Shown here: positions 2,645 through 54,699 of the stretch, piece by piece
Layout: every line of letters begins with the position of its first letter
Numbering within the stretch: the first letter of the stretch is position 1
Source of the DNA: Bacilli bacterium
GTDB lineage: Bacteria > Bacillota_I > Bacilli_A > RF39 > UBA660
DNA: 64,000 bases
Assembly: GCA_022791775.1 (NCBI GenBank)
Contig: JAAVZT010000003.1
Coordinates: forward strand, 38,980-102,979
Reading direction: 5' to 3'
Notes under the pieces: generated by a model
The model's database searches: none
What the model saw: only the letters and a program-made list of their open reading frames with translations
Told to the model about the DNA's origin: nothing
Made by a program: the position numbers and the translations under genes

Positions 2645-4717
2645 ATGCAAAAAAGAGTAATTATTAAGCAACAAGATCAAAAGGACTGCGGACCTTGTTG
2701 TTTATTATCTTTTATTAAATATTATGGCGGTTATGTTCCACTAGAAAAAATTCGAATAGATTGCAACACCTCATCTAGGGGAACAAGTGCTTTTCATATG
2801 ATCGAAGGATTAAAATCATATGGCTTTGATGCATATGGTACCAAAATAAAAAAAGATCTTTTTTTTAAAACTAATTTTCCACTGCCAGCAATTGTTCATG
2901 TGGTATTAGATAATGGGCTAAATCATTATATGGTCTTATATGAAAAGCGAAAAGACAAAGTGATATTAATGGATCCAAGTAGTGGAAAGAAGGTGATGAA
3001 TGACACTGAATTTTTTTGGATATGGTCTGAATTTTTGTTAGTAGCTTATCCAAAAGAGAAAATTAAAATACTTGATGAAGAAAAAAGTTTTTTTCAATTA
3101 AGTAAACAATACTTAGGTCAAGAGAAATTATTACTGTGGAAAAATTTAAAAACACATTTTTTGTTTGCTTTAATCGGTTTAATATTAACATTTTATGTCA
3201 GGACATCCTTAAATTATTTAGATCAAAAAGAAAAACTAATCGCTTGTATGATTTTATTTGGGGTTCTTCTGATTTTCAAATTACTTTTAACACAAGAGTA
3301 TTTATTAGAACAAAAAGAATTAAACAAAAAATTAGAATTGACCCATGCTTCAAATTATTTAGAACATATTTTTAAACTCCCTCTATTATATTATAAATTG
3401 CGCAGTTCCAGTGATTATTTAATCCGCTTTTGGGAAGCTATGGAATTAAAATTAATATATAGTGATGTAATGCAAAAGATTATTTTAGGTAGTGTTACCA
3501 TTGTAATATGTTTTTATTTCATATATTTTTTATTTCCTACCTTTTTCCCATTTTTAGGGATTACCGCTGGAATATACTATATATTTCACGTTTTAATAGT
3601 AAAAATAAGCTACCAACAAGAGCAAAAGTTTTTAAAGGCCAAAGTAAAATTTCAACAAGAATTATTAGAAAATATAGAAGGATATGAAGTTTATTATTAT
3701 TTAAATCAAAGAAAAATTCAAAAGCAAAAGGTAGAAGAGGAATTTATTTCGTTTTTAGAAATAAAGGATGAGAAAACTGTTTTTTATCAAAGAGTATCTT
3801 TTATACAGCATGTATTAAAAGAATGTATTCATTTTAGCGTCTTAACATTAGGCATTATAGCGATCTATAAAAAAGAGATTCCCATTGTAAATTTTCTGTT
3901 CCTTCAAGAAATGACCTCTTACTTAATTCAATCCTTAGAAAGTTTAGCCAGTCAAATTCCTAAAGAAAAATATTTGTTATCTCTATTGAGAAAGAATGCC
4001 GAATTTTTAACTATTCCAGTAGAAAAAGATGATACCAAAAAAGAAATATTCAAAATAAATGGCGACATATATTTTAAGCAGATATCATATTCTTATAATC
4101 AATATAATTATGTTTTAAAAAATCTGAATTTACATATTATATTCGGATCGCACGTGCAATTATTTGGACAAAGTGGCTGTGGGAAAAGTACTATTTGTAA
4201 ATTAATATTACGCCTATTAGAGCCACTAGAGGGTAAAATATTAATAGGTCCTATAAATATTTTAGACATAAACCTACCATCTATCAGATCTTCAATTCTT
4301 TATTTGAATCAGAGAAGTCATTTACTTACAGGAACAATTTGGGAAAATATAATTATGGGCCGAAATATAGATATGAAGCGTTTTTACCAAGTTTGCGAGA
4401 TTTGTCATTTAGAAGAAATCGTAGCCAAAAAGCCGTTGCGTTATGAAACCACAATCCAATGTCATGAGGAAAATTTGTCAGGAGGTGAAAAACAAAGGAT
4501 CATGTTAGCAAGAACACTATATGGAAATGCTTTCATATATTTATTTGATGAATCATTAAGTGAGGTGGATGAAAAATTAGAAAAAGATATTATCAAGCGA
4601 ATGCGAGAATTTTTGAAAGCAAAAACAATTATATATATTAGTCATAAAAATTATAAATCTTTGTTTGATGAAGTAGTAAAGTTAGAAGCATGTTATGATA
4701 GAGTCCTTATATCATAA
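2645..4717 (+). CDS. ABC transporter with an N-terminal peptidase C39 domain (bacteriocin / double-glycine peptide processing and export; LagD/ComA/LcnC type)
   Basis: N-terminal QKDCGPCCLLSF (catalytic Cys) with His/Asp further downstream. Six TM helices. Walker A GQSGCGKST and ABC signature LSGGEKQRIMLAR. Confidence 0.85.
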   Translation: MQKRVIIKQQDQKDCGPCCLLSFIKYYGGYVPLEKIRIDCNTSSRGTSAFHMIEGLKSYGFDAYGTKIKKDLFFKTNFPLPAIVHVVLDNGLNHYMVLYEKRKDKVILMDPSSGKKVMNDTEFFWIWSEFLLVAYPKEKIKILDEEKSFFQLSKQYLGQEKLLLWKNLKTHFLFALIGLILTFYVRTSLNYLDQKEKLIACMILFGVLLIFKLLLTQEYLLEQKELNKKLELTHASNYLEHIFKLPLLYYKLRSSSDYLIRFWEAMELKLIYSDVMQKIILGSVTIVICFYFIYFLFPTFFPFLGITAGIYYIFHVLIVKISYQQEQKFLKAKVKFQQELLENIEGYEVYYYLNQRKIQKQKVEEEFISFLEIKDEKTVFYQRVSFIQHVLKECIHFSVLTLGIIAIYKKEIPIVNFLFLQEMTSYLIQSLESLASQIPKEKYLLSLLRKNAEFLTIPVEKDDTKKEIFKINGDIYFKQISYSYNQYNYVLKNLNLHIIFGSHVQLFGQSGCGKSTICKLILRLLEPLEGKILIGPINILDINLPSIRSSILYLNQRSHLLTGTIWENIIMGRNIDMKRFYQVCEICHLEEIVAKKPLRYETTIQCHEENLSGGEKQRIMLARTLYGNAFIYLFDESLSEVDEKLEKDIIKRMREFLKAKTIIYISHKNYKSLFDEVVKLEACYDRVLIS

Positions 4718-25233: not shown

Positions 25234-25653
25234 ATGAAAGGTTATGTTTTAGATTATATTGATGAAAATGAATTTCGCAAATTAGAAAGAGCTTTAAAAA
25301 AGTATAATATGTTAGCTTTTAAAAAGCTAAACTTTGAATATTATCCAGCATTAAGAAGTGGACAATTTTTAGGAGAATTAGTTTCACAAAATAAGAAAAA
25401 TGGAACTGAAACTTATGAATTAAAACTTCCAAGTGACAAAATGTTTGCTCAAGTTCATGGAGAAGTAAAATTAGTATATACCGTTTATAAAAAAGAAGAG
25501 ACAGTAATGTTAGATAAGATTACACCTACAGATATTTTACTAGAAGGACATAAATCTGAACTTACTACTTATAAAGGTATCATGATTTCTAAAGCGAATG
25601 CTTCAAAAGATATTTTTAAAATAGATTTATTAAATCGATTACAAGAAAAATAA
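25234..25653 (+). CDS. hypothetical protein in a standalone transcription unit
   Basis: ORF with a GGGGG ribosome-binding site, its own consensus promoter and a strong terminator. The C-terminal region KLVYTVYKKEETVMLDKI..GHKSELTTYKG loosely resembles the RelE/ParE C-terminus. Not confirmed. Confidence 0.4.
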   Translation: MKGYVLDYIDENEFRKLERALKKYNMLAFKKLNFEYYPALRSGQFLGELVSQNKKNGTETYELKLPSDKMFAQVHGEVKLVYTVYKKEETVMLDKITPTDILLEGHKSELTTYKGIMISKANASKDIFKIDLLNRLQEK

Positions 25654-26140: not shown

Positions 26141-26737
26141 TTAAGAATATATATGTTCTATTCCTAATTCTTTGTATGTGTAGTATTTCTTTAAAATTTT
26201 CCCTATAACAATTATATTATCTTCTTGATAAGTTTCTAGGTGCTCAAGGTATTCGGAATCTAACAGTATTAATTCTCCATTTTTTTTCATTTGTAAAATA
26301 AATTTATTTGCTGGATCTATAATATACTTATTATTCAATAAGATTGCTTGATGGTTAGCTTTTTCGATTGCAGGATTTACTTTATACCAAAGTCCAGTTT
26401 CATTATCTACTAAAATGTATATTAAAGATGGATGAAAATTTAAAATACACAATAAATCATAAAGAAATTCTGCAGCATGTCTACAGCAACAAATACCATA
26501 CATAACTTGGACTCTTTGATTTATTTCTACAGGTAATCCCAAATAGTGGAAGTTATTATCAAAATTAATTGTTCTGTTTATGCTAAAAAAACCACTATGA
26601 AGCATGTGAAAAACTATTTTTGAATATTCTAATGCATCTTTCGCATCGTATTGTTGCAAATAATTTCTTAGATTAAGTAAAATTATTTTATAAGCATCTT
26701 TAATAACTTTCTTATCATCATCAGTAAAATTTAACAT
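26141..26737 (-). CDS. hypothetical protein with a Cys...His...Asp arrangement (possible papain/transglutaminase-like cysteine peptidase)
   Basis: YGICCCRHAAEF, later KANHQAILLNNKYIIDPAN. No TM segment. The fold assignment is an inference. Confidence 0.4.
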   Translation of the reverse strand: MLNFTDDDKKVIKDAYKIILLNLRNYLQQYDAKDALEYSKIVFHMLHSGFFSINRTINFDNNFHYLGLPVEINQRVQVMYGICCCRHAAEFLYDLLCILNFHPSLIYILVDNETGLWYKVNPAIEKANHQAILLNNKYIIDPANKFILQMKKNGELILLDSEYLEHLETYQEDNIIVIGKILKKYYTYKELGIEHIYS

Positions 26738-27032
26738 ATTAATATCTCCTTAAAAAAATTATTTATCACACGTTCATGGATGAGGCAATGTACAAGTGTG
26801 TTTACTAAATTGATATAATTTAGTAGAATGATTGTTTCAAGAATAATATTTGCAATAATATATTTGGAGCATTTAATATTAGGGGATTGCCAATTATACT
26901 ATTAATAAAAAAATCACCTAACTCAGCAAAGACTTAGGTGAAATCAAATATCTTGGCAGCAATCAACTCAGCAAAATGGAATGTTCCATTTTTGTTTTAT
27001 GCAAGTTCTATTGATGAATACATAATATCATA

Positions 27033-27064
27033 AAACGACTTTTTAACAAGTCGTTTCTTTTATA
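27033..27064 (+). terminator. rho-independent terminator (9-bp stem)
   Basis: aaacgactt / aagtcgttt stem, loop tttaac, then CTTTTAT. Confidence 0.5.
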
Positions 27065-27092
27065 CTCGAAAAATTCGCGTTTAATATCAATT

Positions 27093-27177
27093 TGGTGCAG
27101 GCGAAGGGACTTGAACCCCCATGGATCACTCCGCTAGATCCTAAGTCTAGTGCGTCTACCAATTTCGCCACGCCTGC
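27093..27177 (-). tRNA. tRNA-Leu (anticodon TAG)
   Basis: The reverse complement folds as a cloverleaf: GCAGGCG acceptor stem, anticodon loop CTTAGGA, long variable arm, encoded CCA. Confidence 0.85.
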
Positions 27178-27188
27178 ATATTTTAAAA

Positions 27189-27265
27189 TGGTGGACCTTG
27201 TAGGACTCGAACCTACGACCGACCGGTTATGAGCCGGTTGCTCTAACCAACTGAGCTAAAGGTCC
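27189..27265 (-). tRNA. tRNA with a CAT anticodon, probably tRNA-Ile2 (lysidine), possibly elongator Met
   Basis: Reverse complement GGACCTTTAGCTCAGTTGGTTAGAGC...CTCATAA...GGTTCGAGTCCTACAAGGTCCACCA. The acceptor C4/C5 resembles ileX-type tRNAs. Confidence 0.8.
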
Positions 27266-27390
27266 ATTGCTATTTAATGATAGCACAAAAAGAAATTGCA
27301 TGCAAGTAAAAGATAACACAGTTTTAAATCGAATCCAAATTAGAATTAAATTGATAATTTTGGGAACTATGATATAATAAATATCGATAA

Positions 27391-29103
27391 GTGAGTGATG
27401 AAGAAGTGAAAAATAATATTGTCAAAAAAATAAGTGTTATTTTAATAGGATTTTTAGCTTTTTTTGGAGTGAATCAAGTAAATGCAGGAATTAATTATTC
27501 AGATGGTTTAAAATGTGGTCCAGATAAAGTTGAATCAGATGGCAGAGTTTCGAAAACTTGTACATTAGGATTTACGGTTACAGAAAAAGATGCGAATTAT
27601 AACAAAATAACAGCCAAATTTACTTTGAAAAACGCAATTTTATCTAAATTTGAAGTAGAAAATGGTTGGAATATAAGCAATTCTAGCACAAATGCTTATA
27701 CATTAGAAACAGGTTCTCCTTCACTAAGTGTAGGTTATCACAAATTAGCAACCGTTGTATTTTATAAAGTAGATACAGCAGCAGAATGTACAATTACTTT
27801 TCAATATCAATTTGCTAAGATTAATCGTTCTTGTTCTATTTATCAAAATAATTATTATGGAAAAAATGGAACTATTGTAGATAAATTGACGTATCAAAAA
27901 GAATGTGAACGAAATGTTTGTACGATCCTATCTGATGGTACGAGATATGGAAAAAATGGAACCATCGTTGATGAACTAACGTACCAAAAAGAATGTGAAC
28001 AAAATGTTTGTAGGATTCTATCCGATGGCACAAGATATGGAAAAAATGGAACCATTGTAGATGAATTAACATACCAAAAAGAATGTGAACGAAATGTCTG
28101 TAAAATATTATCCGATGGTACAAGATATGGAAAAAATGGAACCATTGTTGATGAACTAACATACCAAAAAGAATGTGAGCGAAATGTCTGCAAGATATTA
28201 TCCGATGGCACCAGATATGGAAAAAATGGAACTATTGTAGATGAATTAACGTATCAAAAAGAGTGTGGAGAAAATGTCTGTAAAATATTACCAGATGGCA
28301 CCAGATATGGAAAAAATGGAACTATTGTAGATGAACTAACCTATCAAAAAGAATGTGAGCGAAATGTCTGTAGAATATTATCAGATGGGACCATCTATGG
28401 TAAAGATGGTATCATTGTCGATAAATTAACCTATCAAAAAGAATGTGAAACAAATATCTGTAAAGTATTACCAGATGGAACAAGATACGGAAAGAATGGA
28501 ACCATCGTGGATGAACTAACCTATCAAAAAGAATGTGAACGAAATGTCTGTAAAATCTTATCAGATGGTACGAGATATGGAAAAGATGGAATCATTGTGG
28601 ATGAGTTAACTTATCAAAAAGAATGTGAAAAAAATATTTGTAAAATCTTATCAGATGGGACTATTTATGGTCCAACTGGAAGCATTATTGATAAATTAAC
28701 ATACCAAAAAGAATGTGAAGAAAATTATTGTAGAATCTTAACCGATGGTACCATTTATGGAAAAGATGGACTAATTGTAGATCAAGAGACCTATGATAAA
28801 GATTGTAGTGAAAAACTTTACTGTGAAAAGATCGATGGAAATTATTATGGGAAAAATGGCGAAAAAGTATCAGAAGCGCAATATAAACTGGAATGTTTTA
28901 AACATTATTGTGAACAAATAGGAGACAAATACTTTGATAATCAAGGAAAAGAAGTTTCAAAAGCAGATTATCAAAAAGCCTGTTTAAACGAAATAGATAA
29001 TCCGCAAACTGGTTCTATGATTCCAGGTTTATACTTAGTAGCAGCAATCGCAATTGGAAGTGGCATGATCTATATTTCAAAAAAGAAAAATCGTTTCTTA
29101 TAA
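27391..29103 (+). CDS. cell-surface repeat protein: signal peptide, about eleven tandem 30-aa Cys-containing repeats and a C-terminal NPQTG cell-wall sorting signal
   Basis: Repeat unit YGKNGTIVDELTYQKECERNVCKILSDGTR. The C-terminus NPQTG + GSMIPGLYLVAAIAIGSGMIYI + SKKKNRFL is sortase-B-like (S. aureus NPQTN, B. anthracis NPKTG) followed by a hydrophobic segment and a basic tail. Confidence 0.7.
   Translation: MSDEEVKNNIVKKISVILIGFLAFFGVNQVNAGINYSDGLKCGPDKVESDGRVSKTCTLGFTVTEKDANYNKITAKFTLKNAILSKFEVENGWNISNSSTNAYTLETGSPSLSVGYHKLATVVFYKVDTAAECTITFQYQFAKINRSCSIYQNNYYGKNGTIVDKLTYQKECERNVCTILSDGTRYGKNGTIVDELTYQKECEQNVCRILSDGTRYGKNGTIVDELTYQKECERNVCKILSDGTRYGKNGTIVDELTYQKECERNVCKILSDGTRYGKNGTIVDELTYQKECGENVCKILPDGTRYGKNGTIVDELTYQKECERNVCRILSDGTIYGKDGIIVDKLTYQKECETNICKVLPDGTRYGKNGTIVDELTYQKECERNVCKILSDGTRYGKDGIIVDELTYQKECEKNICKILSDGTIYGPTGSIIDKLTYQKECEENYCRILTDGTIYGKDGLIVDQETYDKDCSEKLYCEKIDGNYYGKNGEKVSEAQYKLECFKHYCEQIGDKYFDNQGKEVSKADYQKACLNEIDNPQTGSMIPGLYLVAAIAIGSGMIYISKKKNRFL
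27856..28845 (+). repeat. tandem 90-bp coding repeats (about 11 copies, 85-95 % identical)
   Basis: The repeated DNA unit tatggaaaaaatggaac...gatggtacgaga is visible directly in the sequence. More degenerate copies continue to about 28990. Confidence 0.8.
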
Positions 29104-29107
29104 CAAA

Positions 29108-29144
29108 AAGTTAATACAAATGAAAAAAGTATTAACTTTTTTTG
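29108..29144 (+). terminator. rho-independent terminator (10-bp stem)
   Basis: aagttaatac / gtattaactt stem followed by a T-run. Confidence 0.6.
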
Positions 29145-29169
29145 TAAGTATGATATAATAAAAAAGAAT

Positions 29170-29245
29170 TGTCCTATAGCCAAGCGGTAAGGCAACGGGC
29201 TCTGACCCCGTCATTTCATTGGTTCGAATCCAATTAGGACAGCCA
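29170..29245 (+). tRNA. tRNA-Gln (anticodon CTG)
   Basis: TGTCCTA/TAGGACA acceptor, D-loop AGCCAAGCGGTAAGGC typical of Gln/Glu, anticodon loop CTCTGAC, encoded CCA. Confidence 0.8.
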
Positions 29246-29256
29246 AATAAATAAAA

Positions 29257-29279
29257 AAGCTCTCAAAAGGAGCTTTTTA
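29257..29279 (+). terminator. short terminator hairpin after tRNA-Gln
   Basis: agctc/gagct stem followed by T4. Confidence 0.35.
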
Positions 29280-29280
29280 A

Positions 29281-30540
29281 ATGGAAAGAATAAATTACTA
29301 TTTATATAAAATATTTGGTATACTAAAAGTAGGTGGAAACATGAAAAAAGTGTTAAATTTCAAAAAAGAAAATTTAAAAATTTGCTTGACTGTAATAAGT
29401 GTACTTTTAATGCTAATGGGTTTTGGCTTTTATTATTACCAAAATAATTCTGTAAATCAAGCCAAAGAATTAGAACGAAAAAGAGCGGAAAAAATAGCAG
29501 AAATCTTGCAAAAAGAAATCAATTCCTCTTTAATAGAACAAACGGAAATACAAAACACAATTATTCAAATGGTATTTCAAACAAAAGATCAAGAAAGAAA
29601 AACTTATCTAATTCGAATGCAAGATGGAGAAGAAGTAGGTTTAAAAGAATTAATTAAAGAAGAGCACATGGAAAATTTTAAAAAAAAGGTTAGAGAGTTA
29701 ATCAATTTAAAATATCCTAAATTTATTGCTGATGTTTTAAACTATGGGAATGGGACTGTATCTTACCAACTAAAAGAAAACGAATTAATTTTATATTTTT
29801 ACCAATTTATAATAAACCCGAAATTAGAAGAAGAGATAAACTTGCATGTTAATTATAACGAAATAAAAGATTACATTTCCGTTCCTGTGAAATTAGATGA
29901 TGAATATGAGGTAGAGAATGGCTATCATTATCAAAAGGATAAAAAAACAATTGCTTTAACATTTGATGATGGTCCAAATGGAAAAAGAACTCGAAAATTA
30001 TTAGAATTATTAAGTCAAAATAAAATGCACGCAACATTTTTTATGGTAGGAAATCGAATGGCTGCATCTCCGGATTTGGTAAAAGAAGTATTACAAAGCG
30101 AAAACGAAATAGGAAGTCATTCTTACAATCATAAAAATTTAAGTCGTTTACAAGTGGAAGAATTAAAAAAAGATGCAGAAAATATCAACCATATTTATGA
30201 AAGTATTACTGGCCAAAACTTACATTTATTAAGACCACCTTATGGTAGTGTAAATAATCGAATGAAAGAAAATTTAAATTACGCTTTTGTAAACTGGAAT
30301 TTAGATACAGAAGATTGGCGATATCGTGATTCAAATCATGTATATAATGCAGTGCTAAATAAAGTAGGAGATGGAGATATTATACTAATGCATGACTTAT
30401 ATGATAGCACAGTAGAAGCCGTAGAAAAATTATTGCCCGAATTATATGTACGCGGCTTTCAGGTAGTTAGTGTAACCGAGTTAGCAACCTTAAAAGGAAA
30501 AACATTAGAGCTTCATAATACATATCATTCTTTTAAATAA
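29281..30540 (+). CDS. polysaccharide deacetylase (NodB / carbohydrate esterase 4 domain) with an N-terminal TM helix and a long N-terminal extension. The likely start is the Met at 29341
   Basis: TFDDGP, HSYNH and LRPPYG NodB motifs in the C-terminal half. MKKVLNFKKENLKICLTVISVLLMLMGF is the TM anchor. Confidence 0.8.
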   Translation: MERINYYLYKIFGILKVGGNMKKVLNFKKENLKICLTVISVLLMLMGFGFYYYQNNSVNQAKELERKRAEKIAEILQKEINSSLIEQTEIQNTIIQMVFQTKDQERKTYLIRMQDGEEVGLKELIKEEHMENFKKKVRELINLKYPKFIADVLNYGNGTVSYQLKENELILYFYQFIINPKLEEEINLHVNYNEIKDYISVPVKLDDEYEVENGYHYQKDKKTIALTFDDGPNGKRTRKLLELLSQNKMHATFFMVGNRMAASPDLVKEVLQSENEIGSHSYNHKNLSRLQVEELKKDAENINHIYESITGQNLHLLRPPYGSVNNRMKENLNYAFVNWNLDTEDWRYRDSNHVYNAVLNKVGDGDIILMHDLYDSTVEAVEKLLPELYVRGFQVVSVTELATLKGKTLELHNTYHSFK

Positions 30541-30913
30541 GTTCGTCAGGTTCAGTATCAATCGTGGTACTAAAAATCTCTGTAAATAAATAAATGATAC
30601 CACCAATTAAAAACAAACAAGCTGCCACAAAATTTGCTTCTTGTAAAAATAATTGCTTTAAAGAAACGTTATTTCTAGTCTCCTTAATATGTTTGTAATT
30701 TAAATAAACAAAATATAAATAGATTAAAAAACTGACAAAAAAAATAGTAATATTAATGAAACGAAATTCTTTTCGTGATTTATCCTCGTGCTTTATAATC
30801 CAATCCCGTTCTAAGACATTAGAAATGATTGCTCCTAAAACAATAAAGGAGTAAACAATCCAAATAAAATCCTCTGTTTCCAATTCTTGCAATATTTGAG
30901 ATAGATTTGCCAT
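30533..30913 (-). CDS. hypothetical small membrane protein
   Basis: ORF with 3-4 predicted TM helices. Confidence 0.4.
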   Translation of the reverse strand: MANLSQILQELETEDFIWIVYSFIVLGAIISNVLERDWIIKHEDKSRKEFRFINITIFFVSFLIYLYFVYLNYKHIKETRNNVSLKQLFLQEANFVAACLFLIGGIIYLFTEIFSTTIDTEPDELI

Positions 30914-30999
30914 AATAAAAATATATGATATCTATGAAATAAGTATTAAATTTGATTGACTATATAAAATATATAGTGTAAAATGAAAAAGTAAGAAAT

Positions 31000-31090
31000 G
31001 GAGCAGTACTCAAGAGGCCGAAGAGGGCGCCCTGCTAAGGCGTTAGGTCGGGTAACCGGCGCGGAGGTTCAAATCCTCTCTGCTCCGCCA
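31000..31090 (+). tRNA. tRNA-Ser (anticodon GCT)
   Basis: GGAGCAG acceptor, anticodon loop CTGCTAA, long variable arm, encoded CCA. Confidence 0.85.
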
Positions 31091-31100
31091 TAAAAAAAAT

Positions 31101-31123
31101 AACCGTAAATAACGGTTTTTTTG
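31101..31123 (+). terminator. rho-independent terminator after tRNA-Ser
   Basis: aaccgt/acggtt stem followed by T7. Confidence 0.55.
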
Positions 31124-31135
31124 TTTTTCTAAAAA

Positions 31136-31447
31136 TTACCTATTCTTAAATCGTGGAATTTTTATGGCAAATTGATTTAATACTTTTATTCGAATAAAAT
31201 AGGATCCTCCTAAAAATATGAACGAAAAAATTAACAAAGAAATAGCGGAAAAATAATTCCAAATGGTGTGTTCATTTTTTAAGAAAATTTGTCCAAATAA
31301 GAAAACAGAAAACAAAATTCCTAAAATTCCAAGCCAACTAAGCCGAATTAATCTTAAATGCATTTCTTTTCCTTTGGGAGTAGAATAATACATTTTTTGG
31401 CACTCCTTTTTTTCTTCTTTTGTTAATCTTTGATACTTATTTTTCAT
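31136..31447 (-). CDS. hypothetical small membrane protein
   Basis: ORF with 2 TM helices. The N-terminal region is KE-rich. Confidence 0.4.
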   Translation of the reverse strand: MKNKYQRLTKEEKKECQKMYYSTPKGKEMHLRLIRLSWLGILGILFSVFLFGQIFLKNEHTIWNYFSAISLLIFSFIFLGGSYFIRIKVLNQFAIKIPRFKNR

Positions 31448-31639
31448 GTTATGACCTCACCGTTATTCTACCATACAAATTATGAAAAAAACAACTATTA
31501 ATACAATAAGATAGAAGATAAATATATATTTTTTAAAAAGTCATAAACAGAAATCTTATTAGAAAAAGAAATAAAAAATGTATGAAAGTATTTTCATATT
31601 CTTTTTTTTATGCTATACTAAACAAGTAATCAAATTTAT

Positions 31640-31715
31640 GGGCTGTTAGCTCAGCTGGTAGAGCAACTGACTCTTAATCAGTGGGTCTAGGGTTCGAATC
31701 CCTAACAGCCCACCA
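31640..31715 (+). tRNA. tRNA-Lys (anticodon CTT)
   Basis: GGGCTGTTAGCTCAGCTGGTAGAGC...CTCTTAA...GGTTCGAATCCCTAACAGCCCACCA. Confidence 0.85.
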
Positions 31716-31730
31716 TTTATTTGATTAAGA

Positions 31731-31749
31731 AAGCCCTTAAGGCTTTTTT
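31731..31749 (+). terminator. terminator hairpin after tRNA-Lys
   Basis: aagcc/ggctt stem followed by T-rich sequence. Confidence 0.45.
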
Positions 31750-31799
31750 ATTTTAGCATAGAAATAATAAAAACTGACATCCTATCAGTAGGAGGAAGT

Positions 31800-32993
31800 A
31801 TGAAAAAAATTTATACAATACTAATTACGATTTTAGTCGTTATACTTTTAGGTGGAAGTTTTTTTTGGTTTACAAATGCTTCCAAAGAAATAGATGAAGT
31901 TGCGATATGGGCAGAAGAACAACTAAAAACACTATCCTTAGATGAAAAAATAGGTCAAATGTTAATTATATCTGATCGAACCCCTACCATGACAGAAAAC
32001 TTATTAAATACTTTAGAAATGACCAAACCAGGTGGCTTTATTTTATTTAGCGAAAACTTTACAACTTATGAAAACACACTTCAATTGATTCAAGCGTTGG
32101 AAGAAACTGCTACAATTCCCTTAATAATGTCCATCGATCAAGAAGGTGGAAGGGTACAACGACTAAAAAATTTAATCAACCAACAAGTGACCAATTTTCC
32201 ATCAATGAATGAACTAAGTTTATTTGGAACAGAAGAAAAAGCTTATCAAGTCGGAAAAGCAATAGGGGAAGAATTACGGGTATTTGGAGTTAATGTTGAT
32301 TTTGCACCCATTTTAGATGTATTAAATACTCCAAATAATGTAATTGGTAATCGTAGCTTCGGAAATAATCCATACTTAGTTTCGAAATTTGGATTAGCAT
32401 TGGCAAAAGGATTGAAAGAAGTCGGCGTAACACCTACATACAAACATTTTCCAGGCCATGGAAGTACGAGCGAAGATTCTCATCAAGAATTACCTATAAT
32501 TGAAAAAACAATCGAGGAATTAAAATCAAATGATCTCATTCCTTTTCAAAATGCTATTGAAAATGGAGCAGAAATTATTATGGTGGGACATTTAGCTTTA
32601 CCAAAAATAACCAATGACAACGTACCTGCTTCGATTTCTTCGAAAATCATAACAGAATTATTAAAAAAAGATATGAATTATCAAGGACTTGTAATTACGG
32701 ATGCCTTAAACATGAAAGCTTTAACAAATCATTTTAGCGAAAAAGAAATTATTATAAAAGCTATTAATGCTGGAGTGGATCTACTATTAATGCCTACGGA
32801 TCCAAAAAGAACCATTAAAATTATAAAACAAGGAATTTTAGATCATGAAATAACAGAAGAGCAAATTAATGACTCTGTCAATAAAATATTACAATTTAAA
32901 AAAAGAAATATAACCAATTTAAAATTAAATCGAGAATATTTAGGAAAGAAAGAACATCAAGAACTAATAGAAAGTTTGAAAAAAAATGAGTAA
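31800..32993 (+). CDS. nagZ: glycoside hydrolase family 3 N-terminal domain protein (beta-N-acetylhexosaminidase NagZ-like), membrane-anchored
   Basis: KIGQMLII, DQEGGRVQRL and KHFPGHG motifs of GH3. N-terminal TM anchor. Confidence 0.8.
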   Translation: MKKIYTILITILVVILLGGSFFWFTNASKEIDEVAIWAEEQLKTLSLDEKIGQMLIISDRTPTMTENLLNTLEMTKPGGFILFSENFTTYENTLQLIQALEETATIPLIMSIDQEGGRVQRLKNLINQQVTNFPSMNELSLFGTEEKAYQVGKAIGEELRVFGVNVDFAPILDVLNTPNNVIGNRSFGNNPYLVSKFGLALAKGLKEVGVTPTYKHFPGHGSTSEDSHQELPIIEKTIEELKSNDLIPFQNAIENGAEIIMVGHLALPKITNDNVPASISSKIITELLKKDMNYQGLVITDALNMKALTNHFSEKEIIIKAINAGVDLLLMPTDPKRTIKIIKQGILDHEITEEQINDSVNKILQFKKRNITNLKLNREYLGKKEHQELIESLKKNE

Positions 32994-33145
32994 TATTTTG
33001 TTTTAAACCAATTTTTTATAAGTATGAGATAGAACGTTAGTTCATTTATCGTTCGATTTCTCATACTTTTTTATTTTATCTTACAGGAAAGAATATATTG
33101 CATTTATTCCAAATATTATATCGAAAGCAAAAAAGAAAATAAAAA

Positions 33146-33172
33146 AACGAACCATAACTAGTTCGTATATAA
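33146..33172 (-). terminator. terminator hairpin downstream of the minus-strand tRNA pair
   Basis: cgaac/gttcg stem. On the minus strand it is followed by a T-run. Confidence 0.4.
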
Positions 33173-33177
33173 CTTTT

Positions 33178-33254
33178 TGGTGACCCGTACGGGATTTGAA
33201 CCCATGAATGCATGCGTGAAAGGCATGTGTGTTCAACCACTTCACCAACGGGCC
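33178..33254 (-). tRNA. tRNA-Glu (anticodon TTC)
   Basis: Reverse complement GGCCCGTTGGT...CCTTTCAC...GGGTTCAAATCCCGTACGGGTCACCA, which matches the Bacillus tRNA-Glu pattern. Confidence 0.85.
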
Positions 33255-33264
33255 AATTAACAAA

Positions 33265-33341
<77 letters not shown>

Positions 33342-49535: not shown

Positions 49536-50684
49536 ATGAAAAAAATAACCTTAAAAAAAGACTATAGCATTAAGTTAAAGAGTCAAATAACAAAACATTT
49601 TATGCCGCAGTATGTTTACTTACCCATTCCAAAAGAAGATGAGTTATTCTCTAAAATACAAGTTAAAAAAGAAGAAAAAATTTCTAAATACTTGGTTTCT
49701 CCTGTATCAGGCAAAATTGTAGGTATAAAATATTGTCAAAATGCTTTAGGGGAAATTTTAAAATGTTTAACGATTTTAAATGATTATAAAGAAACTTACA
49801 TCAAACGGACATCAATTCGAAAAAATATTCAACAGTTAAGCCTAGAACAAATAGTGTTAGAATTAAAGGAATATCAATACCATGAAATCGCCGAGAAGCT
49901 TTGGCAGCAAAAAAATGCTAAAATACTTATTTTAAATGGAATCGAAGAAGAACCTTATGTTGCCAATGAAATTTTTTGTAATTTAACGAATCCAAGTATT
50001 ATGTTAGAGATGCTAGATGCTCTAAAAGAAATGAATACATATGAAGAAGTAAAAATAGTAATAAAAAATACAGATCGAGAAAATATTGAAGCATATCATA
50101 ACTTTTTAGGTACTTATCCAAATATGGAGCTTGTATTGGTACCCGATTTTTATCTCGTATCAGAATTCTTAGAGGATTATATGGAATTAAAAAAAGATTA
50201 TCTACTTCTTAAACCCAGTGAATTAAAAATAGCCTATAATGTTTTAAAACGTCGTCATTATCAAACCGAACACTTATTTACAATTAGCGGTGATGGCATT
50301 ACCAATCCCCAAATGATAGAAGCAAAATTGGGAAGTTCTGTTACGGAAATTATGCAAACATATATTCATTTCAAAAAAGAACCATTGAAAATATATATAA
50401 ATGGTATAATGAGAGGAAGAATAACTTCTCTAGAAAATATGATTGTAACTCCAGATCTGCAAGCTATTTTAATTATGAAAGAGTCAACAATTGAAGAAAA
50501 ACTTTGCATTAATTGCGGAAAATGCTATCAAGTTTGTCCCAAAGGATGTAATCCAAGAGCATATTTAGAAAATCGGAATAAAGAAGCCATAAAAAATTGT
50601 ATAGATTGTGGATTATGTTCTTATATATGTCCATCGTTTATTAACCTAAGAAAGGAAATGCAAGATGAAAAGAGAGAAGAATAA
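49536..50684 (+). CDS. RnfC-like protein (degenerate): N-terminal barrel-sandwich domain, ILILNGIEEEPY in place of the NGAECEPY motif, and two 4Fe-4S ferredoxin motifs at the C-terminus
   Basis: VSPVSGKIVGI resembles RnfC_N. CINCGKCYQVCP and CIDCGLCSYICP are two CxxCxxCxxxCP clusters. The Cys of the ECEP motif is replaced by Glu. Confidence 0.5.
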   Translation: MKKITLKKDYSIKLKSQITKHFMPQYVYLPIPKEDELFSKIQVKKEEKISKYLVSPVSGKIVGIKYCQNALGEILKCLTILNDYKETYIKRTSIRKNIQQLSLEQIVLELKEYQYHEIAEKLWQQKNAKILILNGIEEEPYVANEIFCNLTNPSIMLEMLDALKEMNTYEEVKIVIKNTDRENIEAYHNFLGTYPNMELVLVPDFYLVSEFLEDYMELKKDYLLLKPSELKIAYNVLKRRHYQTEHLFTISGDGITNPQMIEAKLGSSVTEIMQTYIHFKKEPLKIYINGIMRGRITSLENMIVTPDLQAILIMKESTIEEKLCINCGKCYQVCPKGCNPRAYLENRNKEAIKNCIDCGLCSYICPSFINLRKEMQDEKREE

Positions 50685-51627
50685 TCGGCCTTACTTAACC
50701 CAGTTTCAACCAAATGAATACCAAAAATATATAACCTATTCCTTAATCTTTTTGCTATGCTATGGTTTTTATAAAAATGGACTTTTACCAATCTTTCATC
50801 AGGACGCCAATATTTGGTATCTACTAAAATTAATGATTTATCCAATCGGAGGCTATCTTTTTGGAAAAATATCAGAAAAATATGGAAAAAATCAAAATGG
50901 CTTTTATGCATTTTACGGATTATTGATAGGAATGAGTATGCCCATTCAGCTAAATTGGTTGCTATTTCTTCTAATATTAGGAATATTATTTTGGCTTTTT
51001 CAAATCTTTTTAGCAAACATAAAATGGTTCAGTCCCTTATTACTAAGTAGAGGTATTTTTTCGCTTTTGATTGTGATAAACTCAGTATCTTTTTTAAATC
51101 CAAGCGAAGGAAATCAGGAAATGGTGTACACCACCTTAGACATATTTTTTGGTAGAAGTATTGGAGGAATTTATACTACAAGCATTTTTTGGCTTTTTAT
51201 TACTTTTTTAATTTTATGTTTTCATGATTTGTACAAAAAAGAAATCCCTGTTTTTGTTTTAATAACCTATATCATGAGTGCTTTATGCTTTGAAATTTTT
51301 CTTCCAACTGGAAATCTTCTTTTAACTATCTTAAATTCTTCCACCATTTTTGCAAGTATATTTCTAGCTTCGGAAATAGTCTCTGCACCCTATATAGATA
51401 AAAGTAAATGGACTTATGGAATACTAGTTGGTTTCTTTGGGTTTCTGTTTGTTCGCTTTATAAATGTCCAAGAAGGGATTTATTTAAGTCTAGCCTTATG
51501 TAGTTTTCTTCCTCCTTTATTGGATAAATGGTTTTATCATAGGCAAAAAAAGAGAAGTTTTGTCGATTCATCAAAGCCAAAAATACCTTTTGCAAAAAAT
51601 AACCTTCCAAAATTAAAAAAATCTTAA
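50665..51627 (+). CDS. RnfD/NqrB-like polytopic membrane protein (divergent)
   Basis: Position directly after the RnfC-like gene (overlapping by 20 nt). 8-10 TM helices. The FMN-attachment and Gly-rich RnfD motifs are not evident. Confidence 0.4.
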   Translation: MKREKNNRPYLTQFQPNEYQKYITYSLIFLLCYGFYKNGLLPIFHQDANIWYLLKLMIYPIGGYLFGKISEKYGKNQNGFYAFYGLLIGMSMPIQLNWLLFLLILGILFWLFQIFLANIKWFSPLLLSRGIFSLLIVINSVSFLNPSEGNQEMVYTTLDIFFGRSIGGIYTTSIFWLFITFLILCFHDLYKKEIPVFVLITYIMSALCFEIFLPTGNLLLTILNSSTIFASIFLASEIVSAPYIDKSKWTYGILVGFFGFLFVRFINVQEGIYLSLALCSFLPPLLDKWFYHRQKKRSFVDSSKPKIPFAKNNLPKLKKS

Positions 51628-51755: not shown

Positions 51756-53198
51756 ATGAAAAAGCTATTAAAATATCTCTTGTTGGGAGTTGGAATTTTT
51801 TTCATTGGGAAAGAAATAAGTTCTGCAGGAAGTGCTTTTTATTTAGAGCCAGCACCAAATGGATTAACCTATAAGATTAACAAAGGCTATAAAACAGTAA
51901 GACTTTATTTTCAAATGGTGCAAGATCGGATAACAAAAGAATATATTTATTGTTTAGAACCAGGGGTTCAGTTAAGTAATCAAACATATGAAGAATGGAA
52001 TGAATGGGATTACAATAAATTTAACTTAAGCAAAGAGCAAAAAGATTTTATTGTAAGAGTAGCATATTATGGTTATGGATATCAAAATCATACTAGCCTA
52101 GATTATTACTATGCAGCTCAATTATTAATATGGGAGAAAATTATTCCAAAAGATTGGGACATTTACTATACAACATCTTTAGACGGAGAACGCATTTTAC
52201 TTTATCAAAAAGAGCGAGAAGATATATTAACTTTAATTGAAAATGATCAAAAAAATTCTGCCTTTGAAAATCAAGTATTTGAGTGGAATGACAAAGAATC
52301 TCTTTATATAGAAGATCAAAATGGAGTGTTAAAAGATTATCGGCTTTTAACCAATTCAAGTTGGAAAATTACTCATAGCGGAAATTCGCTTCAAATTCAA
52401 AATACAAATTTACAAGAACAAGTTTTAGAATTTGAAAAAACATATGAAGGAGAACCTTTAAAATTTTATTGGCAAGAAGAAGGTCAAAAGGTATTAAAGC
52501 GAGGAAGTATCATTCCAAGACGATTTCGTATGACGCTAAAGCCGTTTCACATAAAGTTAGAAATAGATAAACAAAATGAAGAAAAAGAACCACTTGAAAA
52601 AGTTTTGTTTCACTTATATGCTAAGGAAGATATTAAAGATAAAGAAGAAAATATTCGTTTCCAAAAAAATGACAAAGTAGCAGAAGGTTGGACTGATCAA
52701 AACGGCAAAATAATTTTTGATAATTTATGGTCTGGAAATTACTACTTAAAAGAAATGGAATCTCCTAAGGATTACCAGTTATTAGAAGAAGACATACCAA
52801 TTACATTAGAAAAAGAATCAAAACATATCGTCATTCAAAATGAAAAAAAGAAACAAGATTTAATTCTTCAAAAAGTGGATAGCGATTCCAATGTTCCGTT
52901 GTCAAAAGTACGCTTTCAAATCAAAAATGCTCAAGAAGAGATCGTGTTTGATGGTCGAACAGACGAAAACGGGCAAATAATTTTAAAAGACCTACCAGTT
53001 GGAGATTATATAATTTTGGAAATAGAAACGATCGAAGATTACATCTTATTAAAAGAACCGCTTCGGATTACTTTGAACGGAGAAACATCGAAAACAGAAA
53101 TCAAAATTACTAATCGTAAAATAAAAAAAGTTCCAGATACCTACCAAAAAAGAATATGGATAGAATGGTTTTGGATTGATAGGAAAAGATACACATGA
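51756..53198 (+). CDS. secreted adhesin/pilin-like protein: signal peptide, putative thioester domain (YCLEP...AQLLIW), CnaB/SpaA-type domains and a C-terminal non-canonical sorting signal VPDTYQ + hydrophobic segment + DRKRYT
   Basis: CnaB signatures WTDQNGKIIFDNLWSGNYYLKEMESPKDY and TDENGQIILKDLPVGDYIILE. The C-terminal architecture mimics an LPXTG sorting signal. A sortase gene lies downstream. Confidence 0.6.
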   Translation: MKKLLKYLLLGVGIFFIGKEISSAGSAFYLEPAPNGLTYKINKGYKTVRLYFQMVQDRITKEYIYCLEPGVQLSNQTYEEWNEWDYNKFNLSKEQKDFIVRVAYYGYGYQNHTSLDYYYAAQLLIWEKIIPKDWDIYYTTSLDGERILLYQKEREDILTLIENDQKNSAFENQVFEWNDKESLYIEDQNGVLKDYRLLTNSSWKITHSGNSLQIQNTNLQEQVLEFEKTYEGEPLKFYWQEEGQKVLKRGSIIPRRFRMTLKPFHIKLEIDKQNEEKEPLEKVLFHLYAKEDIKDKEENIRFQKNDKVAEGWTDQNGKIIFDNLWSGNYYLKEMESPKDYQLLEEDIPITLEKESKHIVIQNEKKKQDLILQKVDSDSNVPLSKVRFQIKNAQEEIVFDGRTDENGQIILKDLPVGDYIILEIETIEDYILLKEPLRITLNGETSKTEIKITNRKIKKVPDTYQKRIWIEWFWIDRKRYT

Positions 53199-54169
53199 AA
53201 AAAAATTTATTAATCATCTTTTGTTTTCTTTTTCTCTTTTTAAAAAATACGAAAGCTAGCATGTTAAATTTTCATGTCACAGAATGGGTTCCAACTACTT
53301 ATCAAATAAATGATACATTAACTTCATTTCAAATTTATCAGAGCAATAATACAGAGCATTTTATGTATCAAGTAAGTCCTTTAGAAAAAATAAAATACCA
53401 AACAGATTATAAACAAAGTTCTCATTTAGAAGAAATGGATCGCACCGAATTAAATAAAATTAAATATTGGATTAGCGAGACCGAAAAATCAGAAGACATT
53501 AATGATAAATATTACTTTTATGTTAATATTCAACTTCTGATATGGAAACTCTTTCACCCCGACATTGAGGTGGAAATGGTAGGAAATAAAGAGTTGGTCG
53601 AAAAATATTATGATAAATTATTATTACTTCTTCCGAATCCACCAAATTGGGTACATGACTATGAAATGCAAGAAGAAATCATCTTAGAAGTCAGTGACCA
53701 ATATGAGATTATTTCAAATCAGTGTGAGGTAGAAAAAAACGAAAACCAAATCATTTTAACCAAATGTGAAGACAATGCCAAAATTGAAGTAAAAGAAAAA
53801 GGAGAAGATACCATCTTAGCGTTAGAAGATAAAACTGGAGAATTAAAAGTATTAGAAGGAGGAAATTTCCCTTGGACTTGGGAATTTCAGATCCTGCCTT
53901 CTAAACGGCCTGAAATTCCAGAAGAAAAGCCAAATCCTCCGATAAAAGAGGAAGAAGAAAAGCCAAATTCTCAACCGGAAGAGAAACCAGAGGACTCCAA
54001 TGACAATTTAAATTCGGATAAAATAGATAAGTCAGAAAATTTACCCAATCAATCAGAGTATGAAGAAGAAAAAAGAGTAATTACAAATGTTCCTAATACT
54101 TATCAAAGTTCTTTTGAAATTTTATGGCTCTTTCTCTTCCTCCTAGGAATTTATCAGTGGAAAAAATAA
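53195..54169 (+). CDS. paralogous secreted protein with a C-terminal VPNTYQ sorting-signal-like tail and a Pro/Glu-rich linker. It lacks the thioester Cys (YQVSP instead of YCLEP)
   Basis: Shares ...TYQIN..., ...QLLIW... and the C-terminal (K/N)VPxTYQ + hydrophobic segment + KK with the upstream gene. PEEKPNPPIKEEEEKPNSQPEEKPE is the stalk-like linker. Confidence 0.55.
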   Translation: MKKNLLIIFCFLFLFLKNTKASMLNFHVTEWVPTTYQINDTLTSFQIYQSNNTEHFMYQVSPLEKIKYQTDYKQSSHLEEMDRTELNKIKYWISETEKSEDINDKYYFYVNIQLLIWKLFHPDIEVEMVGNKELVEKYYDKLLLLLPNPPNWVHDYEMQEEIILEVSDQYEIISNQCEVEKNENQIILTKCEDNAKIEVKEKGEDTILALEDKTGELKVLEGGNFPWTWEFQILPSKRPEIPEEKPNPPIKEEEEKPNSQPEEKPEDSNDNLNSDKIDKSENLPNQSEYEEEKRVITNVPNTYQSSFEILWLFLFLLGIYQWKK

Positions 54170-54699
54170 AATATTTTCTGATCTTGCTTCTGATTTTTCT
54201 TTTATTTTGGGGATCAAGTATCAATTTCAGCAAAGAAATATTAAGAACTGAAACTCAGCAAAAAGACATGAATGAATATCTAAATCAAACGAATAATCAG
54301 CCTTTATTTGGAATTTTAGAAATCCCTAAAATTAATTTAAAACAACCCATTTATCCCAAAGATGACCCAAAAAATCAAGTGGATAAAAATATTACACTTT
54401 TAGAAGAAGACGTAACTCAAAATGTACCAAACCCAGTTATCATCCTGGCCTCTCATTCTGGAAATGGTCCATATGCATACTTTAAAAATTTGACATCCTT
54501 AAAAGAAGGAGATGCCATTTTTTTATGGCTAAAAAGCGAGCAAAAAGAATATCGGTTGATAAAGAAAGAAGAAGTAATGAAAAATGAAACCCTATATGTA
54601 AAAACATTTTCTTTTTCTCATTTAATTTTAATAACTTGTAGTAAAACAAATTCGAAAATTCAAGAGATATATTATGCCAAATATATTTCAAATAAATAA
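54124..54699 (+). CDS. srtA: sortase (class A-like transpeptidase). The probable start is the GTG at 54157
   Basis: Aligns by eye with S. aureus SrtA: GILEIPKINLKQPIYPK, LASHSG (His), FKNLTSLKEGDAIFL, LILITC (TLxTC catalytic Cys). N-terminal TM anchor KIKYFLILLLIFLLFW. AGGAA lies 9 nt before the GTG. Confidence 0.8.
   Translation: MALSLPPRNLSVEKIKYFLILLLIFLLFWGSSINFSKEILRTETQQKDMNEYLNQTNNQPLFGILEIPKINLKQPIYPKDDPKNQVDKNITLLEEDVTQNVPNPVIILASHSGNGPYAYFKNLTSLKEGDAIFLWLKSEQKEYRLIKKEEVMKNETLYVKTFSFSHLILITCSKTNSKIQEIYYAKYISNK

Follow-up and report, generated by a model that had tools for sequence, protein, structure and literature searches.

A gene in a 64,000-nt stretch of the genome of an uncultured Bacilli bacterium (contig JAAVZT010000003.1 of assembly GCA_022791775.1, positions 38,980 to 102,979; the whole stretch is called the window here) encodes a 570-aa protein laid out as a signal peptide, a 115-aa all-beta N-terminal domain (N-domain), 13 cysteine modules, the motif NPQTG, a membrane-spanning segment, and a charged KKKNRFL tail. 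We consider it probable that this is a sortase-anchored, fibrillar-adhesin-like surface protein of an anaerobic gut bacterium, with a stalk of disulfide-closed mini-modules. More tentatively, the C-x24-C unit of the stalk may be an undescribed, autonomously folding, disulfide-stapled mini-domain, the smallest stalk domain seen so far in sortase-anchored adhesins, apparently restricted to one clade of uncultured Bacilli of the gut and located behind at least two tip domains. The parts of the gene are listed below in window coordinates.

27391-29103, + strand: coding sequence of the 570-aa surface protein, GTG start; the ratio of nonsynonymous to synonymous differences among its repeats (pN/pS 0.07-0.22) confirms that it is coding
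27391-27486, + strand: signal peptide, aa 1-32 (...FFGVNQVNA, cut before G); A32 is invariant and the hydrophobic core kept in 26 homologues
27487-27831, + strand: N-terminal all-beta domain, aa 33-147, putative tip or ligand-binding domain, from the AlphaFold2 (AF2) model and alignment
27832-28983, + strand: 13 Cys-bounded modules, aa 148-531, C-x23/24-C with 4-5-residue linkers, from the cysteine map and AF2
27856-28782, + strand: near-identical 90-bp tandem block; Tandem Repeats Finder, 10.3 copies, 83% matches, score 1070
28999-29100, + strand: sorting signal, with NPQTG at 28999-29013, hydrophobic SMIPGLYLVAAIAIGSGMIYIS at 29014-29079, and charged KKKNRFL at 29080-29100

The cysteine module

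The protein contains 29 cysteines (42, 57, 133, 148, 172, 177, ... 531), and from C148 onward their spacing strictly alternates between 24/25 and 5/6 residues. This divides the stalk into 13 modules, ten of them near-identical and the last three degenerate. At the DNA level, Tandem Repeats Finder reports a single array (27856-28782) without indels, far above chance. The original prediction, made from the letters of the window, had described eleven near-identical 30-aa repeats; the open reading frame (ORF) and the 90-bp array are real, and the count has to be revised to 13 modules. The repeat unit that it gave, YGKNGTIVDELTYQKECERNVCKILSDGTR, occurs exactly and has two cysteines per 30 aa. However, these two cysteines (C-x4-C) belong to neighboring modules, so that the unit is mis-phased.

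AF2 models with the family alignment as input are of high predicted confidence. A model of five modules (aa 383-536) has a mean predicted local distance difference test score (pLDDT) of 94.1, linkers included. The predicted module consists of the strands of a short beta-hairpin or mini-sheet and an eight-residue helix that ends exactly at the second cysteine. A hairpin motif of the form aromatic-aromatic-x-x-x-G (YYGKDG) is conserved in the module.

Neither sequence nor profile searches match the module to Pfam, NCBIfam, or the PDB. The original prediction had suggested a profile comparison of the repeat unit as a check; these three databases proved empty, and relatives were found in a much larger collection of protein clusters (see below). 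Foldseek also returns nothing significant for the module, and its best rows are the choline-binding modules of LytC and LytB, TcsL, and glucansucrase (E at least 0.2, TM-score about 0.12). Weak, sub-threshold Pfam matches are to MORN_2, WG_beta_rep, and Choline_bind_3. Two other candidate functions were rejected. A calcium loop like that of dockerins or EF-hands does not fit the canonical spacing when examined by eye and finds no support in Pfam. Zinc binding by the C-x4-C linkers was set aside as well, with linkers that vary from 2 to 10 residues and a His that some relatives have in their linkers and this protein lacks.

Probable pairing of the cysteines

The original prediction proposed a disulfide within each repeat. 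The cysteines very probably do form disulfides, and the bonds would each close one C-x24-C module, a pairing that crosses the boundary of the unit first proposed. Within the family, the C-to-C spacing inside the module is fixed at 23-25 residues and the linkers range from 2 to 10 residues, with Pro-rich linkers of nine residues in one relative. Both cysteines are present in essentially every module, and almost no cases of the natural loss of one cysteine, which could reveal its partner, are found among family modules.

The relatives that carry a TED-type N-terminus are informative in this respect. Nineteen of 20 have exactly one cysteine upstream of the stalk in the mature protein. In the members read directly (for example, P0040), this cysteine is part of a YC[IM] motif that has TQxA[IV]W downstream of it and is thioester-like. 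In all 20, the stalk has an even number (2n) of cysteines, and the array both opens and closes with a 24-residue gap. Pairing within modules therefore leaves no stalk cysteine unpaired, whereas C-x4-C pairing would leave two. The predicted fold is compatible with such a bond, since a topology of three antiparallel strands and then a helix that runs back should bring the first and last residues of the module next to each other. Cysteine makes up 5.1% of the surface protein, compared with 0.98% across the remaining ORFs of the window.

Relatives and family architecture

A search of 5.8 billion proteins recovers 50 relatives, the best of them 49% identical; none is named, and none has a credible Pfam domain for the repeat. 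An exhaustive profile search finds 208 of 1.84 billion protein cluster representatives at E of 1e-3 or below, and a scan in which each GTDB species was represented by one genome finds 29 loci, both with a three-module alignment as query. All 29 loci are in metagenome-assembled genomes (MAGs) of uncultured bacteria, most of them labeled Bacilli, "Tenericutes", or Erysipelotrichaceae. Five are labeled Muribaculaceae, which we suspect to be a mislabel. Judging by their names, these MAGs derive from gut samples of rabbit, mouse, chicken, and Hadza humans and from deer rumen. A further 13 loci come from metagenomes. The module appears to be restricted to one clade of uncultured Bacilli of the gut. 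The genomic context of the homologues differs at every locus.

A sortase-type C-terminal signal is present in 146 of 185 module-bearing proteins, and the modules in these lie between the N-terminal region and the signal. About 81 module-bearing proteins end in NPxTG (variants include NPKTG in 29 and NPQTG in 27, besides others), and 71 of these have a short N-domain. A VP[D/N/x]Tx ending is present in about 43, of which 37 have an N-terminus of 200-330 aa. The Pfam TED model matches 21 of the 76 module proteins that have a long N-terminus. One module family behind at least two different tip domains would be in keeping with the domain grammar of fibrillar adhesins and fits a role as a stalk. 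Three relatives of about 860 aa (L028, L029, and L043) have 23 modules, a count shared by two diverged orthologues and also by two independent assemblies. The MAG CAYQKO01 holds two paralogues (L032 and L038), and the family can thus be multi-copy within a genome.

The modules could themselves be the functional part, as a multivalent array of beta-hairpins that binds a repetitive ligand such as a glycan, mucin, or cell-wall polymer, with the N-domain as an accessory. We regard this as unlikely. The idea is modeled on choline-binding repeats, the CROPs of toxins, and glucan-binding YG repeats, classes that the YYGKDG motif resembles and from which the top Foldseek rows are drawn; the sub-threshold Pfam matches point the same way. 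Further, predicted surface positions are identical over 9-10 units despite synonymous divergence, suggesting a constraint on the module surface. However, all of the structural matches are non-significant, no profile in Pfam or the PDB matches, and choline-binding repeats have neither a helix nor a disulfide. In most relatives, modules within an array are merely 40-60% identical, as for a spacer, and the modules take the stalk position behind recognized adhesive TED domains.

The N-terminal domain

The AF2 model of aa 33-210 (pLDDT 93.4) shows an eight-strand beta domain followed by modules. In an alignment of 27 N-domain sequences, the only invariant positions are C42 (nt 27514-27516), C57 (nt 27559-27561), C133 (nt 27787-27789), and the first cysteine of module 1, and the remainder is variable. 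This variability fits what might be a fast-evolving tip. A sub-clade of relatives has a fourth N-domain cysteine six residues past the equivalent of C133.

Foldseek against the PDB yields weak, generic beta-sandwich matches for the N-domain, including the CLIPPER adhesin domain 9ifr (E 3.9e-4, target-normalized TM-score 0.53), and others to CBM2, cohesins, FimG, and Als. TED (PF08341) is absent from the surface protein in the Pfam search, and no Gln is invariant among the N-domains. Word-indexed searches with the N-domain alone, or with a profile of the 27 N-domain sequences, return almost no matches and miss known members of the family too. Nominal matches of the full protein to PglZ (25.5 bits), Citrus_P18 (25.1), YciH (37 bits), and adenine phosphoribosyltransferase were rejected as summed, partial, sub-threshold matches of the repeats; no single stretch passes, and less than one third of each profile is covered. 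KOW matches in five relatives were judged to be of the same kind.

Probable wall anchoring and the sortase of the window

The signal peptide has a basic n-region, a hydrophobic core, and a VNA/G cleavage site, as is expected of the Sec signals of sortase-anchored proteins. At the other end of the protein, the tripartite layout recognized in the original prediction is present, with NPQTG followed by a hydrophobic segment of 22 residues (SMIPGLYLVAAIAIGSGMIYIS) and KKKNRFL. P538, T540, and G541 are invariant across 26 relatives, which overall are 31-49% identical to the query. The case for wall anchoring rests on this canonical layout and the invariance of the motif, since anchor hidden Markov models (HMMs) fall below their cut-offs. 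The comparison of the motif with sortase B signals was apt. NPxTG is a motif type of class B sortases, and the enzyme of Bacillus anthracis (SrtB) recognizes NPKTG (PMC11987632); NPQTG falls within the NP[QK]T[NG] type expected of class B substrates. A survey of fibrillar adhesins also counts NPxTG as a Gram-positive anchor motif (PMC8286594).

The statement in the original prediction that the window has no SrtB-type gene is true for class B, as tblastn with Staphylococcus aureus SrtB and an approximate Clostridioides difficile SrtB yields nothing better than E 1.3 in the window. A divergent sortase-family gene is present nonetheless:

54124-54699, + strand: sortase-family gene, 191 aa, given as context; the only sortase in the window and probably not the enzyme for NPQTG

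This protein matches TIGR01076 (52.6 bits, cut-off 39.35) and PF04203 (46.3 bits, cut-off 26.6), and the gene is found by tblastn with S. aureus SrtA (E 7.7e-10). The class-specific NCBIfam models (C or D) all stay below their cut-offs, and there is no match to a class B model. His101 and Cys172 (LILITC) align to H120 and C184 of S. aureus SrtA. The 19 residues past the cysteine include no Arg, and K186 lies roughly at the position of SrtA R197. The gene could thus encode a non-canonical catalytic triad or be truncated.

The sortase gene is the last of a three-gene cluster (51756-54699). The first gene (51756-53198) encodes a 480-aa protein with a TED and two SpaA domains that ends in KKVPDTYQKRIWIEWFWIDRKRYT (VPDTY...), and the second a 324-aa secreted acidic protein that ends in NVPNTYQSSFEILWLFLFLLGIYQWKK (VPNTY...). 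The VP[DN]TY motifs of this cluster are unusual and recall the VPDTG/VPNTx signals found in TED-type relatives with the same stalk module. Since the sortase gene is directly downstream of the genes for the VPDTY and VPNTY proteins, its product more likely serves the VPxTx class.

It is conceivable that no sortase acts on the surface protein, which would then be tethered by its C-terminal transmembrane helix, with NPQTG as a conserved juxtamembrane motif. The lack of a class B sortase in the window and of any sortase near homologues would be accounted for in this way, as would the sub-threshold scores of the anchor HMMs. We consider this improbable in view of the canonical order of motif, hydrophobic stretch, and K/R tail, the invariance of P, T, and G across relatives that share less than half of their residues with the query, and the occurrence of the same stalk with a second family of sortase-type motifs (VPDTG). 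Sortase genes are commonly unlinked to those of their substrates. Anchoring by a sortase is thus the preferred reading of the C-terminus.

Age and stability of the repeats

Near-identical repeats in a surface protein invite the interpretation that their number is changing, and the original prediction took the identity of the DNA repeats, which it put at 85-95%, to imply ongoing expansion and contraction with phase or antigenic variation. The DNA is more diverged than that. In-register identity among the ten 90-bp units is 64-91% (mean 79%), with 82-91% among the first five, and the longest in-register exact runs between units are mostly 29 nt or less, with one of 42 nt. Near-identical units have a pS of 0.49-0.55 and a pN of 0.035-0.12. 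Independent back-translation of the same peptides with the codon usage of this genome gives 74-80% DNA identity, compared with an observed 79-87%, and identical amino acids across units use the same codon in 66-70% of cases against an expected 55%. Most of the visible DNA similarity is therefore explained by protein constraint and codon bias. In other arrays of the family, pS is 0.38-0.62 irrespective of protein identity, which ranges from 0.40 to 0.91.

Comparison of orthologues leads in the same direction. Pairs at 70-79% identity show positional orthology module by module, with gains or losses of just one or two modules. L028 and L029 have 23 modules each, and the identity between modules at the same position is 0.79, compared with 0.44-0.45 within the array; other pairs have 10 vs 9 and 12 vs 10 modules. 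Across species, the module count ranges from 3 to 23. Copy-number expansion has occurred, on an evolutionary timescale. Modules 2-8 of the window protein all map onto one single module of its nearest relatives, which indicates that they probably arose by an old, lineage-specific amplification of that module. The best explanation is that the units are kept near-identical by purifying selection on the protein, without ongoing recombination. No same-species copies were found in a metagenome scan with the N-domain.

A variable-length protein of the Periscope type, or one subject to phase or antigenic variation, in which intragenic recombination or slippage often shifts the repeat number, would also have tandem units of the same length in a surface protein, and Periscope proteins are defined by such repeats (PMC8201768). 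The range of 3-23 modules between species and the gain or loss of one or two modules between related pairs would agree with it. However, variation in Periscope proteins is attributed to high DNA identity (PMC8201768), in contrast to the 64-91% found here with its short exact runs, a pS of about 0.5, and a DNA identity near that expected from protein identity and codon bias; further, orthologues at 79% identity hold their 23 modules in order. Frequent variation of this kind is therefore quite improbable. These data also serve as a caution that near-identical protein repeats are not necessarily prone to recombination, and synonymous divergence should be examined before phase or length variation is inferred.

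That the repeat number is an assembly artefact, by collapse or expansion, is very unlikely: the record is a MAG (GCA_965115265.1) and short-read assemblers often mishandle tandem repeats, but the units, which are 9-36% different from one another and have only short exact runs in common, can be assembled, the frame is intact across all 13 modules, an identical 570-aa product is encoded in the NCBI record, and independent assemblies of another member agree (L028 and L043, 23 modules each).

Proposed model

On the basis of these features, the protein would be exported by the Sec pathway and its signal peptide cut after A32. The NPQTG motif, membrane-spanning segment, and KKKNRFL tail would retain it in the membrane, where a class-B-like NPxTG sortase would cleave between T and G and join the protein to peptidoglycan. 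The 13 modules would form the stalk, each predicted to consist of about 26 residues with a hairpin or mini-sheet packed on one short helix, closed by a putative disulfide between its first and last residue (as the cysteine counts suggest), and joined to the next by 4-5 residues. Since the S-S bond would join the ends of the module, a pulling force would bypass the fold, and the oxidized stalk may thus be inextensible; it may also be resistant to proteases. Such a stalk could hold the variable 115-aa beta-sandwich off the wall for ligand binding, as the architecture suggests.

Several observations weigh against this model. Concerning the tip and stalk, the N-domain has no match in Pfam or NCBIfam and belongs to no recognized adhesive family, and the near-identity of surface residues across units exceeds what a pure spacer needs. 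Concerning the disulfides, Firmicutes are reported to exclude cysteine from exported proteins (PMC2823432), the host with its Rnf genes looks anaerobic, and the window showed no exported thiol oxidase. The number of cysteines in the mature protein is odd (C42, C57, C133, and 26 in the stalk), so that one invariant cysteine is unexplained; it could be a free thiol or form an intermolecular disulfide. Concerning the anchor, the sole sortase of the window adjoins the VPDTY and VPNTY proteins and no cognate NPQTG sortase was identified there, nor was a sortase found near homologues, within 637 kb of flanks around other loci for module proteins. The NF033846 model ("NPXTG-anchored protein") reaches 19.7 bits, short of its cut-off of 23.5 (E 7e-4, over the full 30-position model), with the query the sole one of 26 family members listed for it at E of 0.01 or below. 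TIGR01167 scores 13.7 bits against 15.9, and the PF00746 anchor model is not reported in the Pfam search of the surface protein.

If the model is confirmed, a very small disulfide-closed module joins the catalogue of bacterial surface-protein stalks, and provides a handle on attachment to host or particles in uncultured gut Bacilli, a group without a cultured representative or annotated adhesins. If true, it would also mean that anaerobic, low-GC Firmicutes oxidize dozens of cysteines outside the cell, contrary to the pattern of cysteine exclusion reported for the phylum, and that the extensibility of the stalk depends on the redox state. An exported protein with 26 cysteines in its stalk, in a window where cysteine is otherwise at about 1%, raises the question of oxidative folding in anaerobic Firmicutes. 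The module might also interest protein engineers as a compact, rigid, repeatable scaffold.

The gene and its genomic neighborhood

An identical 570-aa product is called in the NCBI MAG GCA_965115265.1. The true start, however, is probably the GTG at 27406, giving a protein of 565 aa, because homologues begin with MKK, the query has 10 additional N-terminal residues, and a Shine-Dalgarno-like GTGAT lies 6 nt upstream of this codon. The expression signals that flank the gene are as follows.

27351-27378, + strand: promoter-like site, TTGATA, 16-nt spacer, and TG-extended TATAAT; 11 of 12 matches
29105-29145 (approximate), + strand: terminator-like AT-rich hairpin followed by a T-run; -13.4 kcal/mol, z -4.7

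The promoter-like site is strong, with the top score within 27000-29400, and precedes the candidate start codons by 13-28 nt. None of 200 shuffled sequences folds as well as the hairpin, which a consensus terminator scan missed because its stem is poor in G-C pairs. The best explanation of these signals is that the gene is monocistronic, with its own promoter and terminator.

The gene is located between a tRNA-Met (- strand) and a tRNA-Gln (+ strand). Seven tRNA genes (Leu, Met, Gln, Ser, Lys, Glu, and Ile) are present in 27093-33341, single or paired amid protein genes. Contig CBCPBS010000011.1, which carries the surface-protein gene, stops at about window position 33328, within tRNA-Ile (33265-33341). 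The window goes on past this point without any N, and the tRNA-Ile is intact in it. Neither of the flanking ORFs, at 25234-25653 (+ strand, 139 aa) and 26141-26737 (- strand, 198 aa), is matched by Pfam or NCBIfam; the product of the second contains four cysteines, including a CCC run.

The window has a G+C content of about 29%, and the host looks like an anaerobe because Rnf and PPDK genes are present in it. RnfC-like (Fer4 and Complex1_51K domains) and RnfD-family genes (49536-51627) are directly upstream of the TED/sortase cluster. Elsewhere, the window encodes a T2SSE-type ATPase of a pilus or competence system (61858-63246) and an ABC exporter with an N-terminal C39 peptidase domain (2645-4717; PF03412, 110.7 bits), a type that exports double-glycine bacteriocins or peptides.

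Comparison with known systems

The kind of system described here is known; new are the stalk module, the cysteine chemistry that it brings to an anaerobic Firmicute, and the coexistence of identity at the protein level with synonymous divergence. The protein resembles the fibrillar adhesins of Gram-positive bacteria (PMC8286594) in its signal peptide, distal N-domain, tandem stalk repeats (13 modules), and C-terminal sortase-type signal as cell anchor. It differs from them in that its N-domain and module are outside all of their adhesive and stalk Pfam families, with no recognized adhesive domain, and in that their stalk domains are mostly Ig-like folds of 70-100 aa whereas the module is about 26 aa and closed by cysteines. 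Like Periscope proteins with SHIRT, Rib, or G5-E repeats (PMC8201768), it has near-identical protein repeats that would form a rod projecting a distal domain, and the repeat number differs between relatives. However, the repeats of Periscope proteins are also near-identical in DNA and vary between strains, whereas here synonymous sites are near saturation and module order is kept between orthologues. TED adhesins (PF08341) are connected to the family by the 21 of 76 long-N-terminus relatives that carry the same module behind a TED, and the window itself encodes the TED and SpaA protein at 51756-53198. In contrast, the surface protein has no TED and no conserved Gln partner, and its N-domain is a different beta-sandwich of 115 aa.

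The Asn-Pro-x-Thr-Gly motif, hydrophobic stretch, and basic tail are shared with the substrates of class B sortases, such as IsdC of S. aureus (NPQTN) and of B. anthracis (NPKTG) (PMC11987632). Unlike these, the surface protein has no NEAT or heme-uptake domain and no srtB/isd neighborhood, with no class B sortase in the window. Further, the B. anthracis enzyme needs Asp at P2' (PMC11987632), where this protein has Met (NPQTG-S-M).

Choline-binding, CW_binding_1, CROP, and "YG" repeats are likewise short tandem units on an aromatic-rich beta-hairpin (YYGxxG) and supply the top, non-significant Foldseek rows. However, they are about 20 aa long, have no helix or cysteines, and form a continuous solenoid, and none of them is matched significantly by the module. 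In mechanism only, the closest parallel is with pilin and CnaB/SpaA stalk domains, which are locked by a covalent intradomain isopeptide cross-link between Lys and Asn/Asp. In both cases a covalent bond within the domain would toughen the stalk mechanically and against proteolysis, whereas the bond proposed here is a terminus-to-terminus disulfide in an unrelated fold, and thus would be sensitive to redox conditions.

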